Shown: piece by piece, positions 5,018 to 62,181 of the stretch
Position numbering within the stretch: the first letter of the stretch is position 1
How the letters are laid out: every line of letters starts with the position of its first letter
Assembly (NCBI GenBank): GCA_017537175.1
Contig: JAFYLH010000012.1
Location: 65,375-129,374, forward strand
DNA: 64,000 nucleotides
Direction of reading: 5' to 3'
Source: Clostridia bacterium
Lineage (GTDB): Bacteria > Bacillota > Clostridia > Oscillospirales > CAG-272
The notes under the pieces: model-generated
What the model was told of the DNA's origin: nothing
The model's database searches: none
What the model saw: the letters and a program-made list of their open reading frames with translations, nothing else
Made by a program: the position numbers and the translations under genes

Positions 5018-5029
5018 TATAATGAAGAA

Positions 5030-5056
5030 AACAGCAGGGGTAACCCTGCTGTTTTC
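5030..5056 (+). terminator. Rho-independent terminator after the GH18 gene
   Basis: CAGCAGGG-GTAA-CCCTGCTG stem followed by TTTT. Confidence 0.7.
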
Positions 5057-5062
5057 AACCAT

Positions 5063-5163
5063 AATTCCGCACTCCGTGTTCCGACCGGAGGGAGTGCCAA
5101 GAGGCTTTGCCTCAGGCCGCATTCCGCATTCCTCTCATTTTCCGTTCATTATTTCCGCTTGAC
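5063..5163. repeat. Heptad-repeat mosaic element, partial copy C: TTCCGCA-type heptads flanking a 36-bp core (5081-5116)
   Basis: AATTCCGCACTCCGTGTT-[core]-CCGCATTCCGCATTCCTCTCATTTTCCG...; the core is 33/36 identical to the reverse complement of 60479-60514. Confidence 0.7.
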
Positions 5164-6721: not shown

Positions 6722-6744
6722 GATAGACGAAAGGTGGTGCCAAT

Positions 6745-7041
6745 ATGGCTAATAAAACAGCAAACGTAACTGCGAGGGTAAATCCCGAAGTCAAAAGACA
6801 AGCCGAAGAAGTATTACAGCAGCTCGGTGTTCCGGTTTCGGTTCTGATCGATTCGCTATACCGTCAGATCATTATGACCAACAGCATACCTTACTCTTTT
6901 GCGCTTAACACATTACCGACCCGTGATACTATGACGGACGCACAGTTTGATCGGATGATGGCAAAGGGCTTGGAGCAGGCAAAGAACGGACAGGGTGTAA
7001 GTCTGAGTGACGCTTTCTCTGAGATAAACGACAATATTTGA
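6745..7041 (+). CDS. Type II antitoxin, RelB/DinJ family, 98 aa
   Basis: N-terminal ANVTARVNPEVKRQAEEVLQQLGVPVSVLIDSLYRQI matches the DinJ/RelB ribbon-helix-helix pattern; the next gene starts 1 nt after its stop. Confidence 0.8.
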   Translation: MANKTANVTARVNPEVKRQAEEVLQQLGVPVSVLIDSLYRQIIMTNSIPYSFALNTLPTRDTMTDAQFDRMMAKGLEQAKNGQGVSLSDAFSEINDNI

Positions 7042-10129: not shown

Positions 10130-10831
10130 ATGGATAACAATCAGATCGAAGCCGAGGTTAACACCGATAAGGCAGTAAAAAAGGAAAAGCAGAAATTCAG
10201 CCTTTGCCGCTCCGTGTTTGAATGGGTAGAGCTTGTAGCCATTTCCATAACCGTGGTAATACTGATACTCAACTGCTTTGCAAGATATTCTCCCGTTGAC
10301 GGTCAATCTATGAACGAGACCCTGCAGCATCAGGATATACTGATACTGAGCGATTTGTTCTATACACCCAAAAACGGAGACATAGTGGTATTTGCTTCTC
10401 AGCAAACAAAATATGATACCCCTTATGTCAAGCGTGTAATTGCGGTTGCGGGTCAGACTGTTGACTATGATCCGGTAACAGGCAGAGTTACCGTTGACGG
10501 TAAGGTTCCCGAGTGGGAAAAATATGCGGTTCATAAGACCAACGATGTAATCACGGGAGAAACGGTATATTGGGAGTATAATACGGAGGACGATACCGTA
10601 ACCAAAAACGGTCAGCCCTGTGATATGGCAGAGTATGAAGAACAGAGAAACAAGGGCTATGATGTTGGTCAGGTGACATATCCCTATACCGTACCCAAGG
10701 GACATATATTTGTAATGGGTGATAACCGTTGGCACTCCAGCGACAGCCGCTTGATCGGAGCTGTTGATGTAAGAACGGTCCTTGGTAAAGTGGTGTTCAG
10801 ACTTTTCCCGAATACGGGAATTGTAGATTAA
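10130..10831 (+). CDS. lepB: Signal peptidase I (S26 family)
   Basis: N-terminal TM; catalytic Ser box GQSMNETL, Lys box VKRVIAVAG, GDNRWHSSDSR box. Confidence 0.9.
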   Translation: MDNNQIEAEVNTDKAVKKEKQKFSLCRSVFEWVELVAISITVVILILNCFARYSPVDGQSMNETLQHQDILILSDLFYTPKNGDIVVFASQQTKYDTPYVKRVIAVAGQTVDYDPVTGRVTVDGKVPEWEKYAVHKTNDVITGETVYWEYNTEDDTVTKNGQPCDMAEYEEQRNKGYDVGQVTYPYTVPKGHIFVMGDNRWHSSDSRLIGAVDVRTVLGKVVFRLFPNTGIVD

Positions 10832-10920
10832 TTAGGAGTTAGGAGTTAGGAGTTAATGAAGATTTTTGTTTCTTTATGAAACAAAAATCCACATTAATTT
10901 TGCATTTTGCATTTTGCATT
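10832..10920 (+). repeat. Heptad-repeat palindromic element, copy A: (TTAGGAG)x3 - TTAATGAAG - 12-bp hairpin - CACATTAA - (TTTTGCA)x3
   Basis: Read directly; heptads at 10832-10852 and 10898-10918, stem 10861-10872/10878-10889; same architecture as 60451-60589. Confidence 0.8.
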
Positions 10921-10937
10921 CTCCGAAGGAGGTATTT

Positions 10938-12406: not shown

Positions 12407-12774
12407 GTACAAAAAAGGAAACAGGCGATTACGGTGAAAGACTTGCAAAACGGTATCTCAGATTCCGTTTTTACCGTATTCTTGAAACAAACTATAAAAC
12501 AAGACACGGTGAGATAGATATTATCGCCAAAAAGGGAAAGCATATCGTCTTTATAGAGGTCAAGACCCGAAAGCAGGAGCATACCGAGGTCTACGGCAGA
12601 CCCGCCCTTGCGGTAAACTATCAAAAGCGCGAGCACATGAGGTACAGCATAAAAAGCTATCTTGCCCGCAGTAATAGTAAGCTAATACCGAGAATAGATA
12701 TTATAGAGGTATATTTATCAGAGAAGGGACACCGTATAGAGCATATAAAAAATGCTTTCGGCGCACAGGGATGA
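12403..12774 (+). CDS. YraN family (UPF0102) endonuclease-like protein
   Basis: GERLAKRYL...GEIDIIAKKGKHIVFIEVKTR pattern; conserved position after rnhB. Confidence 0.8.
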   Translation: MSTKKETGDYGERLAKRYLRFRFYRILETNYKTRHGEIDIIAKKGKHIVFIEVKTRKQEHTEVYGRPALAVNYQKREHMRYSIKSYLARSNSKLIPRIDIIEVYLSEKGHRIEHIKNAFGAQG

Positions 12775-30331: not shown

Positions 30332-30500
30332 TTTAATTTCCTCCGAAATTTATTGAAATGTATTTTTGACATAATTAAAAATATCTCATAAGATATTAAA
30401 GGAGCGATAAAGCCCGGGTACGAGGTGTTCAGCCGACTTAAAAAGAAACGGAAGTGCAACCAAACTCTGTTCAGCTTGTACTCTTTATATAAAATTCCCG

Positions 30501-30557
30501 GAAACCGCTTCGGCGGTTTTCTTCATTAATTCCGCACTCCGCACTCCGCATTCCGCA
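30501..30557 (-). repeat. Heptad-repeat element, half copy D: (GCGGART)x4 - TAATGAAG - terminator hairpin, read on the minus strand; supplies the ispF C-terminus, stop codon and terminator
   Basis: Plus strand: GAAACCGC-TTCG-GCGGTTTT CTTCATTAA (TTCCGCA/CTCCGCA)x4; heptads at 30530-30557. Confidence 0.75.
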
Positions 30558-31023
30558 CTATCAGTGCCACTGCGTGGGCACTGATCCCCTCCAGCCTTCC
30601 GGTAAAGCCAAGCTTTTCCTCGGTTGTGGCCTTGATGCTTACACGGGAGATATCAATGCCTAAGGCATCGGCTATGTTTTTTCTCATACCGTCGATATAA
30701 GGAGCTAATTTGGGCTTCTGTGCTATGACGGTTGCATCTATGTTTGAGACCTTGTAGTCTCCCAAAAGAGATACACAGTGCTTAAGCAATACTATACTGT
30801 CAGCGCCTTTGTATTTAGGGTCTGTGTCGGGAAAATGCTTTCCTATATCCCCAAGAGCCAATGCGCCCAGCAGGGCATCGCTTACCGCGTGGCAAAGCAC
30901 ATCTGCATCGCTGTGACCTAAAAGACCCATTTCGTATTCTATTTCTGTTCCGCCTAAAATAAGCTTTCTGTTTTCGGCAAAGCGGTGAACATCATATCCG
31001 TGGCCGATGCGTATATCCGTCAT
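30526..31023 (-). CDS. ispF: 2-C-methyl-D-erythritol 2,4-cyclodiphosphate synthase
   Basis: [10 protein letters not shown]...[11 protein letters not shown]...conserved IspF; the last 9 residues RNAECGVRN are encoded by the heptad repeat. Confidence 0.95.
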
Positions 31024-45080: not shown

Positions 45081-45148
45081 TCGGGAATCCTTGAGACCAA
45101 GGGTTCCCGATACGATTTTGTAGGGAACGCATTTATGCGTTTTGTTTT
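45081..45148 (+). terminator. Two tandem hairpin terminators after hup
   Basis: TCGGGAATCCTTG-AGAC-CAAGGGTTCCCGA (13 bp) then AACGCA-TTTA-TGCGTT followed by TTGTTTT. Confidence 0.7.
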
Positions 45149-60450: not shown

Positions 60451-60589
60451 AGTTAGGAGTTAGGAGTGAGGAGTTAGGCCCGAGGCAAAGCCTCTTGGCA
60501 CTTCCTTCGGTCGGAGTTAATGAAGATTTTTGTTGCTTTGGGCAACAAAAATCCACCTTAATTCCGCATTCCGCATTCTGCACTCCGCA
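60451..60589 (+). repeat. Heptad-repeat palindromic element, copy B: (AGTTAGG-type)x4 - 36-bp core - AGTTAATGAAG - 12-bp hairpin - CACCTTAA - (TTCCGCA-type)x4
   Basis: Heptads 60451-60478 and 60562-60589; core 60479-60514; stem 60525-60536/60542-60553. Confidence 0.8.
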
Positions 60590-60621
60590 TTAAATAAATA
60601 ATAATTTGGAGGATTACATAA

Positions 60622-61878
60622 ATGATCAACAAGAGCTATGAATTAGCAAAAGAGATCTATGCGGCACAGGGTATTGATACCGATGCTGCGATCGCTAAGC
60701 TTAAGAACATTCCCGTTTCACTTCACTGCTGGCAGGGTGATGACGTTATCGGTTTTGACCACGACGGCCCCCTCAACGGCGGTATCCAGACCACAGGTAA
60801 CTACCCCGGCAAGGCAACCACTCCCGAGCAGCTTATGGCTGATATGGACAAGGTTCTCTCCCTTTGCCCCGGTACAAAGAAGATCAACGTTCACGCTTGC
60901 TACGCTATCTTTGAGGACGGTCAGTTTGTAGACAGAGACAAGCTTGAGCCCAAGCATTTCGCTAAGTGGGTAGAGTTTGCAAAGGCACACGGCTGCGGTC
61001 TCGACTTCAACCCCACCTTCTTCTCTCATCCTATGCAGAAGGACGGCCTTACACTTTCCAGCCCCGACGAAAACATCCGTAAGTTCTGGGTAGAGCACGG
61101 CAAGGCTTGTATCCGCATTTCCGAGTATTTTGCAAAGGAAACAGGTATGCCCTGTGTTATGAACATCTGGATCGGCGACGGCTTTAAGGATATTCCCGCT
61201 GACCGTATGGGCCCCAGAATGAGATATAAGCAGTCTATCGAGGAGATCCTCTCCGAGCCTTATGACTTCAACCTCGTTAAGCCCTGCGTTGAGTCCAAGG
61301 TATTCGGTATCGGTGTTGAGTCCTATACTGCAGGCTCTGCAGAGTTTGCTCTCTCCGTTGTAGCGGCTAACTCCGACAAGTGCATTCCCCTTATGGATAA
61401 CGGTCACTACCATCCCACCGAGGTTGTTTCCGACAAGATCCCCGCACTTCTTTGCTTCTTCCCCGAGATCGCACTTCACATTACAAGAGGTGTTCGTTGG
61501 GACTCCGACCATGTTGTTCTCTTTGACGACGAGACCAAGGAAATGGCAAAGGAGATCGTTCGTTGCGATGCTCTTGACCGTGCTTACATGGCACTTGACT
61601 ACTTTGATGCTTCCATCAACCGTATCTCCGCTTGGACCACAGGCTTCAGAAGCTGGCAGAAGGCTCTTCTTGCGGCTATGTGTACTCCCAACGCAGCTCT
61701 CAAGGAGCTTCAGGATCAGGGTAACTTCACCAAGCTTATGGTTATGCAGGAAGAGGCTAAGATGCTTCCCTTCGGCGCAGTATGGGCTAAGTATTGCGAG
61801 GAGTGCGGCGTAGCAGGCGACGCTTCTTGGTTTGACGAAGTAGAGAAGTACGAAGCAGAGGTACTCAGCAAGAGATAA
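60622..61878 (+). CDS. rhaA: L-rhamnose isomerase
   Basis: IPVSLHCWQGDDV... and overall conserved RhaA sequence, 418 aa; GGAGG RBS. Confidence 0.95.
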   Translation: MINKSYELAKEIYAAQGIDTDAAIAKLKNIPVSLHCWQGDDVIGFDHDGPLNGGIQTTGNYPGKATTPEQLMADMDKVLSLCPGTKKINVHACYAIFEDGQFVDRDKLEPKHFAKWVEFAKAHGCGLDFNPTFFSHPMQKDGLTLSSPDENIRKFWVEHGKACIRISEYFAKETGMPCVMNIWIGDGFKDIPADRMGPRMRYKQSIEEILSEPYDFNLVKPCVESKVFGIGVESYTAGSAEFALSVVAANSDKCIPLMDNGHYHPTEVVSDKIPALLCFFPEIALHITRGVRWDSDHVVLFDDETKEMAKEIVRCDALDRAYMALDYFDASINRISAWTTGFRSWQKALLAAMCTPNAALKELQDQGNFTKLMVMQEEAKMLPFGAVWAKYCEECGVAGDASWFDEVEKYEAEVLSKR

Positions 61879-62130
61879 TCGACTTTTTGTCGATTATCTC
61901 AATGAAATGAATCCTTGCGGATTCGTGAAATGCCGAGCAGACTCACGCCCGCAGTGCGGGATGAAGTGAGGCTGGGAGGACGGCAGACACCCAATGAGTT
62001 CAAGCGACTTTAGGAGCGAAGAAGGAATTGCTGGTGTCAACGAGTGACCTTGCGGTCATGAAATGACGGCTTTGCCGTCGTGAAATGCAACTTCGTTGCA
62101 TTAAGGAAACCTTTTGCCCGAGGGCAAAAG
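61877..62130 (+). repeat. Array of six short tetraloop-type hairpins joined by four TGAAATG linkers, split by a 110-nt central segment
   Basis: Hairpins 61877-61895, 61909-61924, 62045-62058, 62065-62079, 62085-62101, 62111-62130; TGAAATG at 61903, 61926, 62059, 62081. Confidence 0.75.
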
Positions 62131-62181
62131 CTAATTCCATTATATCATTTTAATTAAACAAAAAAGAAGGTTATACTTATC

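Follow-up and report, generated by a model that had tools for sequence, protein, structure and literature searches.

The 139-base intergenic element that occupies the rhaB-rhaA spacer (copy B, positions 60451-60589 of the window, the 64,000-nt stretch of DNA that was analyzed) is probably one member of a scattered family of non-coding mosaic repeats in uncultured Clostridia from the ruminant gut, which can be compared with the REP, REPIN and BIME repeats of Gammaproteobacteria. It is not a structure private to rhaBA. The window itself contains two full copies (A and B) and two partial copies of the element. Copy B resembles the REP and BIME repeats of E. coli more closely than a dedicated regulatory RNA, and it is probably incidental to the rha operon rather than a rhamnose-specific regulator. 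A search of the literature found no description of this repeat family in Clostridia.

The preliminary description had divided copy B into two heptad arrays, a 36-bp core and a central stem. This layout was borne out, with each part found in its place and non-random:

60451-60478, + strand: left purine-rich heptad array, AGTTAGG AGTTAGG AGTGAGG AGTTAGG (TRF, double-heptad counts)
60479-60514, + strand: 36-bp nested module (the core), CCCGAGGCAAAGCCTCTTGGCACTTCCTTCGGTCGG, exactly between two heptads
60515-60524, + strand: left junction AGTTAATGAA, made up of a degenerate fifth heptad and GAA, identical in copy A
60525-60553, no strand assigned: central palindromic hairpin GATTTTTGTTGC-TTTGG-GCAACAAAAATC, the conserved core of the repeat family
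60554-60561, + strand: right junction CACCTTAA, with the variants AACCAT, CTCCAT and CACCAC in the family
60562-60591, + strand: right pyrimidine-rich heptad array, TTCCGCA TTCCGCA TTCTGCA CTCCGCA (TT)

Both arrays were called as tandem repeats by TRF, and double-heptad matches numbered 6 and 8 in the window, compared with 0.5 and 0.3 in shuffled sequence. The left unit AGTTAGG, when reverse-complemented, reads CCTAACT, a variant of the right-arm unit CCGCAYT, so the arms of copy B are imperfect inverted repeats at the DNA level. The hairpin stem between them, GATTTTTGTTGC(T)/(G)GCAACAAAAATC, comprises 12-13 bp and closes on a loop of 3-5 nt. The rhaA start codon (ATG) lies at 60622, ~30 nt downstream of the end of copy B. 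A similar distance had been claimed for the gap to the rhaA ribosome-binding site, which is wrong: the GGAGG motif (60608-60612) begins 18 nt past the element end.

Several conventional readings of the spacer were rejected. Promoters and terminators were looked for between 60300 and 60700 and neither was detected, so both readings were rejected; the stem of copy B, moreover, is A/T-rich and followed by CACCTTAA. The core has a length of 36 nt that would suit a CRISPR repeat, but a spacer array is absent. A coding sequence was rejected because the 7-nt period is not divisible by 3, and G-quadruplex formation is not applicable because the AGTTAGG and TGCGGAA units hold GG only, without G3 tracts. 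The tetranucleotide GTAG, which lies at the foot of the classical REP hairpin, is absent from 60451-60591. Rfam 15 gave no gathering-level match for the window and 14 related loci, returning chance miRNA-like matches only (E of at least 0.015).

The other copies of the element in the window are:

10830-10922, + strand: copy A in the lepB-ylqF spacer, with junctions and outer stem as in copy B, without the core, and with a TTTTGCA right arm
5028-5135, + strand: partial copy with a terminator-like hairpin, AACCATAA and a TTCCGCA-type array that contains a second copy of the core
30500-30559, + strand: partial copy with hairpin GGAAACCGC-TTCG-GCGGTTTTC, then TTCATTAA and four YTCCGCA heptads

Copy A does carry TTTTGCA units in its right arm. 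Both partial copies consist of a hairpin, then ..TAA, then a YTCCGCA array, and a left array is absent from each. The first sits at the polC-coaX junction, which is non-syntenic in two of the loci fetched from related genomes (L135 and L265). At the second, the 3' end of the minus-strand ispF open reading frame (ORF) reads through the heptad array at 30526-30559 and its stop codon falls in the TTAA junction, so that the repeat provides the last codons of the predicted protein. The window carries further repeat-like sequence outside these copies. The spacer between rhaA and the SIS gene (61879-62181) measures 303 nt in the window vs 114 nt in L130 and contains short hairpins in a chain, separated by (G)TGAAATG, which looks like a second, different repeat type. 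A sequence that resembles a classical REP unit, GTAGGGAACGCATTTATGCGTT, in which a palindrome follows GTAG, is present a single time, at 45119-45145.

The size of the family was assessed by scanning contigs of one genome per species with the pattern GAAGATTTTTGT-N4-16-ACAAAAATC. Among the matches listed, the hairpin GAAGATTTTTGT..ACAAAAATC with flanking arrays occurred more than 100 times, mostly in ruminant-gut MAGs labelled 'Clostridia bacterium RGIG...', Eubacteriales or Oscillospiraceae, often with many occurrences per contig. The outer stem of the family hairpin is GATTTTTGT/ACAAAAATC; its outer 9 bp were required by the search pattern with which the loci were fetched, so that its invariance and the apparent uniformity of the family are partly circular. 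Many of these loci are mutually orthologous, and the counts are not independent. A period-7 run adjoined the hairpin in 119 of the 146 unique matches listed, and did so on both sides in 74. Polarity was pronounced among the matches listed: left arrays were purine-rich in 77/81 cases and right arrays pyrimidine-rich in 92/94. Each array usually comprises 3-5 units (mode 3-4) in fixed phase with the hairpin, and unit sequences range from AATGAGG, AACGAGG, AGTGAAG, AGAGAAA, AGTTAGG and others on the left to CATTCAT, CGTTCAT, CATTCCT, TTTTGCA, TTCCGCA and others on the right. Nearly all evaluable copies (74/77) are intergenic, and all four gene arrangements are represented. The genes neighboring three sampled copies were housekeeping genes (e.g. 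hisS, aspS, and nusB), with no transposase among them. The exact 22-mer common to copies A and B was absent from the one-genome-per-species contigs and gave one chance match, inside an ORF, in the metagenome collection. Viral sequences scanned for the hairpin pattern and the core yielded array-free chance matches only. In three loci (L195, L219, and L222), heptad-hairpin elements have beside them TGTTTCACGTGAAACA, which we take to be a match to the Firmicute parS consensus; in L195 and L222 it stands on both sides.

Heptad arrays themselves extend further. A degenerate triple heptad (CCKMAYT x3) matched more than 120 viral contigs (IMG/VR, L003-L122) that differ widely in G+C content, mostly as arrays of 4-5 units, with 29 convergent pairs and 0 divergent. 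Other heptad arrays (TTAGCTN, ACCGTGA, and GATTCCC) often adjoin these viral arrays. Related GGAAT-type heptads are present in distant taxa.

The window matches an NCBI MAG that is labelled 'Clostridia bacterium' and comes from ruminant-gut metagenomes. Comparison of orthologous sites in its relatives, which bear the labels Oscillospiraceae or Ruminococcaceae, revealed that the element is present at the rha site in some relatives and absent in others. The rhaB-rhaA spacer is just 27-28 nt long and element-free in L126 (rhaA 93.9% nucleotide identity) and in L130-L134 (90.4%); in L127 and L128, its length is 39 and 20 nt, respectively. In L161 (MAG RGIG1713, 94.6%) and L259, the site is occupied by a hairpin whose inner stem differs and by a right array of TTTTGCA units (three in L161, four in L259), without the left array and without the core. 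Taken at the level of sequence, these spacers show that the rha site gained a hairpin and right-array element in the lineage of the window organism, with the left array and the core also present in the window strain. Three long 'RhaA' proteins (P0001-P0003) were set aside; they come from unrelated organisms and have short spacers.

Copy A is kept at the orthologous site in L135 and L265 with varying array lengths, and its inner stem has changed in these orthologues yet remains paired (TTC/GAA, C/G, and CC/GG). Both the number and the sequence of units vary among orthologous copies, and whole arrays change in concert. Most copies have an occupied orthologous site in relatives, down to ~75-80% flank identity; site lengths range from 163 to 675 nt, and most occupied sites have a length near that of the query. 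This occupancy indicates that transposition is rare, or that copies are kept by selection or gene conversion. One contig (L265) terminates within its copy A orthologue (12500-12631), and assemblies thus appear to break at such repeats. The same contig carries, upstream of coaX (6740-6925), a CTATTCA array and an (AGTGAAT)x7 array in an unusual pyrimidine-first order.

The 36-bp core behaves, judged by its sequence context, as a nested secondary insertion. Excising it from copy B restores the heptad phase exactly, and the core alone folds at -12 kcal/mol. A second copy with 3 mismatches occupies 5081-5116 of the minus strand (shuffled sequence yields 0), splits a heptad as TT/core/CCGCA, and is oriented opposite to the core of copy B. 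Read in the orientation of the pyrimidine array, both cores in the window share the junctions ..T/CCGACCG...CCTCRGG/CC.. (slashes mark the boundaries). The proposal that the core is a separable insertion is therefore well founded, given that copy A lacks it and that the second core sits in another heptad array in mirrored orientation. A fuzzy search of the fetched loci, allowing up to 9 mismatches, found no copy of the window core beyond the window. The arrays of relatives contain other palindromic modules of 28-41 nt, located at the T/CC heptad boundary. One of these, CCGGGGTTCCCC-hairpin-GGGGTGGG (~40 nt), had 37 matches in the fetched loci, most of them in or beside C-type heptad arrays, in which they keep one polarity; a second nested type is a 28-nt GCGACGC-hairpin-GCTAAAT module. 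The polarity of modules is fixed relative to the heptad and hence mirrored on either side of the hairpin. In L265, the orthologue of copy A carries two nested modules that are absent from the window and from L135.

A candidate mobilizer was found in relatives. When the 1.07 Mb of fetched DNA was searched for E. coli RayT by tblastn, L235 (5e-5) and L188 matched, and the RayT-like Y1 transposase genes are located as follows, with elements or modules abutting each:

L188, 4947-5594: RayT-like Y1 transposase gene
L235, 4956-5585: RayT-like Y1 transposase gene
L270, 2001-2579: RayT-like Y1 transposase gene
L271, 2001-2690: RayT-like Y1 transposase gene

The RayT-like protein carries HUH (PNHIHLLL) and Y..NP motifs. 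It scored 52.5 bits against the NCBIfam model REP_Tyr_transpos (REP-associated tyrosine transposase), below the cut-off of 80, and 19.6 bits against Pfam Y1_Tnp, below the cut-off of 23. It has thousands of homologues, and some of those in Oscillospiraceae and Clostridia MAGs bear the name RayT or transposase. In 4/4 loci examined, arrays, full hairpin elements or modules stand immediately beside the gene, and the neighboring genes differ each time. The 16-mers that flank the RayT-like genes recur in 7-29 loci, compared with a median of 2 for random windows. A ~40-nt module breaks the 5' coding region of the gene in L235, a region that is intact in L188. Units with a GTAG-hairpin (GTAGGGGACG..CGTCCC), which are classical-REP-like, occur beside arrays in relatives and inside the RayT-like ORF. 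The 64-kb window was found to contain no RayT-like gene. From the adjacency in relatives, we infer that a RayT-like protein may mobilize the family; this adjacency could also reflect the sheer density of repeats.

We tentatively hypothesize, while doubting that it will hold in full, that heptad arrays serve as landing pads for ultra-small mobile modules (28-41 nt, including the core) that insert at T/CC without duplication and in fixed polarity, and that a Clostridial RayT-like HUH transposase moves both the modules and the hairpin element via single-stranded DNA. Such chemistry might also underlie the convergent GGAAT-type heptamer arrays of Xanthomonas, Nostoc, and the more than 120 viral contigs.

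The inverted arms invite a different explanation, in which copy B acts in cis as a structured RNA within the rhaB-rhaA transcript: its arms would pair into an extended, imperfect helix, capped by the hairpin and with the core bulging out as a branch, that controls processing, stability or rhaA translation. We consider this unlikely, even though the + strand folds strongly as RNA (-57.7 kcal/mol, z = -5.9) and, as had been proposed, can do so with its arms paired: the minimum-energy fold contains 16 arm pairs (7 GC, 6 AU, and 3 GU). The AGTGAGG variant had been credited with a new G-C pair, and G60468 does pair, but its partner is C60574 and not C60474. Across the family, the hairpin is paired in 99% of cells, with two inner pairs switching among U-A, C-G, and G-C, and compensatory change in it is clear. 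Inner hairpin sequences are diverse (48 distinct), and among the family hairpins in L148-L264 the reverse-complement loops TCGCAGA (n = 25) and TCTGCGA (n = 12) occur as flip and flop versions relative to the asymmetric junctions. For the arms, we used a MAFFT-based count in the symmetric register over 27 copies with arrays adjoining the hairpin. In the predicted register, 71% of cells were paired (G-U counted), compared with 41-54% in slid registers, and the arms pair at about 5/7 positions per heptad family-wide; one heptad position covaries between T-A and C-G on both arms. The preliminary description had named uncorrelated arms as the outcome that would speak against a helix, and a left-right correlation is present, as seen in the in-register pairing and in the T-A/C-G switch. 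When only Watson-Crick pairs are counted, however, pairing is 52% for true partners vs 48% for shuffled ones (68/2000 shuffles reach the observed value), a gain of about 3-4 points. With a partner-specific covariation this small, RNA pairing and single-stranded DNA pairing are indistinguishable.

Further points for a structured RNA are its many G-U pairs, the excess of G.T over A.C mismatches in the arms (16% vs 10% of cells), and a modest sense bias in tight co-directional spacers (16:6), with a ratio of roughly 2:1 in operonic spacers and of 33 sense to 20 antisense copies relative to co-directional flanking genes, cases that are partly non-independent; moreover, with no terminator detected, the element would be transcribed. 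Yet the minus strand folds well too (z = -4.1), like elements lie between unrelated genes in every arrangement, one position per heptad almost never pairs, some members join arrays that are not complementary (e.g. AGAGAAA with AGTTCAT), and Rfam gave no match. The rha-site orthologues lack the left arm and close relatives lack the whole element. A conserved RNA helix specific to the rha mRNA, as had been suggested, is consequently not upheld: the complementarity is mostly the family-wide heptad consensus, and L161 and L259 are without the left array. The alternation of G-C and G-U pairs between copies A and B, previously read as the sign of such a helix, turned out to be a concerted C/T difference of whole arrays, which fits turnover of the arrays at the DNA level as well as it fits RNA pairing. 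Concerted change in unit number and sequence between orthologous copies is also what plain simple-sequence repeats would show, had the arrays been made in place by polymerase slippage beside a pre-existing hairpin, with neither mobility nor machinery involved. The left array, present in the window and missing at the same site in L161 and L259, agrees with this, and heptamers are the commonest class of long simple repeats in prokaryotes, ascribed to slippage in two papers (PMC4679880 citing Mrazek 2007; PMC4692102). Slippage on its own is nevertheless quite unlikely to be the full explanation. It cannot account for the same hairpin and junctions at more than 100 unrelated sites, and it leaves unexplained the heptad phase that is fixed relative to the hairpin, the purine-left/pyrimidine-right polarity together with the 29:0 ratio of convergent to divergent viral pairs, the unit consensus common to the copies, and the site-specific nested modules.

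Two DNA-based alternatives fare worse. The size of ~100-140 nt, the inverted terminal arms, the rha site that is filled in some relatives and empty in others, and the T-runs and A-runs that lie just beyond the left and right ends, respectively, of many copies would all suit a MITE derived from a DDE-type insertion sequence, in which the arrays serve either as terminal inverted repeats or as several binding sites for the transposase, and the targets are A/T-rich. We regard this origin as very unlikely: filled and empty rha sites gave no clear target-site duplication (the spacer is A/T-rich and diverged), no DDE transposase or insertion sequence lay beside the copies sampled, and, contrary to what a typical MITE shows, it is the internal hairpin that is conserved and the arms that vary widely. 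Insertion of the nested modules, moreover, leaves no duplication, which HUH-type chemistry fits better than DDE chemistry. Highly improbable, finally, is a double-stranded binding platform, i.e. a palindromic operator accompanied by phased 7-bp sites to which a nucleoid-associated or regulatory protein would bind, selected in intergenic positions. It would explain why copies persist at orthologous sites to ~75-80% flank identity with a constant outer stem, why phase is fixed and A and T positions are invariant in the arrays, and why GGAAT-type heptads recur in distant taxa. However, the inner stem varies by compensatory substitution and the loop flips and flops, which points to a folded single strand rather than to duplex recognition; the unit sequences are too diverse for one binding specificity, and a candidate protein was not found.

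Under the favored reading of copy B as a member of a mosaic repeat family, a RayT-like HUH/Y1 tyrosine transposase would spread and maintain the family by acting on the folded single-stranded form, and replication slippage would lengthen and shorten the heptad arrays. Copy B would be co-transcribed in the rhaBA mRNA, as expected for a spacer in which no promoter or terminator was detected, and for the same reason an RNA-level effect on rhaBA expression is possible. Any effect on expression would be a by-product, such as REP-like protection of the 3' end of the rhaB mRNA or a looser translational coupling. The data do not require an RNA-level effect, and the element is missing in whole or in part from close relatives. 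If the link to RayT is true, intragenomic replicators of the REPIN/RAYT type would reach gut Clostridia, where they would have heptad-array arms and nested mini-modules. Heptameric intergenic repeats have long been noted to be in excess, and neither for this nor for their convergent pairs is there an accepted mechanism or function; the Clostridia family would make this question testable. Such repeats also occupy operon spacers, lengthen or shorten ORF calls and break MAG assemblies, and their recognition would aid the annotation of rumen and gut Clostridia.

The Clostridia arrays consist of at least two tandem, heterogeneous 7-nt units, are intergenic, and often form convergent pairs, as is found in heptameric repeat arrays elsewhere. 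Cyanobacterial STRR heptamers are further heptameric repeat arrays of the kind present in Xanthomonas and Nostoc. According to Rehm et al. 2015 (PMC4692102), the GGGAATC arrays of Xanthomonas and the GGGGAYT arrays of Nostoc are mostly of four units, are intergenic, and have no assigned function; convergent pairs number 70-75 per Xanthomonas genome, and arrays vary between close relatives. The likeness to the Clostridia family lies in heterogeneous 7-nt units with some conserved positions, the intergenic bias, the array length of ~four units, dozens of convergent plus/minus-strand pairs per genome, and a GGA(A/G)T unit core common to both (PMC4692102). Differences are that the Xanthomonas and Nostoc units contain G3-4 tracts, which none of the Clostridia units has, and that the Clostridia arrays are tied to a conserved hairpin with junctions and to nested modules, features that the available text of the same paper (PMC4692102) does not describe for Xanthomonas or Nostoc. 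The TAACTGA heptamers of Beggiatoaceae, Cyanobacteria, and Bacteroidetes are direct repeats of one unit, with one indirect repeat in 169 sets (MacGregor 2015, PMC4679880); the paired inverted array, the central hairpin, and the nested modules that mark the Clostridia family are absent from them (PMC4679880).

Compared with REP-type systems, the Clostridia elements have the two inverted arms of a REPIN that form a hairpin, imperfectly, with one mismatch per heptad. They are also built like a BIME, as mosaics that combine the hairpin with junctions, arrays, and nested modules of at least three kinds, whose polarity is mirrored across the hairpin; binding by gyrase, IHF or Pol I is a further mark of BIMEs. 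Their arms, however, are arrays of 7-nt units, whereas REP is a single unit of 20-25 nt; their conserved hairpin is A/T-rich, and copy B is without GTAG. The host is likewise different, being Clostridia, the RayT-like protein scores under curated cut-offs, and its gene was seen in loci of relatives, not in the window. In REP/REPIN systems, the cognate RAYT gene is usually single-copy and has the repeats on its flanks. The nested modules recall the small dispersed repeats (SDR) of Nostoc punctiforme, which Elhai and co-workers are said to have described in 2008 as units of tens of nucleotides with hairpin potential, reportedly inserted inside other repeats and found at some orthologous sites but not at others. 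The Clostridia modules differ from these in sequence, host, and target. RAYT groups with a clear link to REPINs have been described in Gammaproteobacteria, and Group 1 RAYTs are merely noted in Clostridia (Bertels et al. 2017, PMC5581495). Like the REP/REPIN-RAYT systems and E. coli BIMEs of the reference works (Bertels and Rainey 2011, PMC3116915; Bertels et al. 2017, PMC5581495), the Clostridia elements are short, high-copy extragenic palindromes between housekeeping genes, with inverted arms able to fold into an extended hairpin, lasting presence at orthologous sites, a mosaic construction from palindromic units, and, in the loci of relatives, a candidate RayT-like gene of the Y1/HUH type with the repeats immediately on its flanks.
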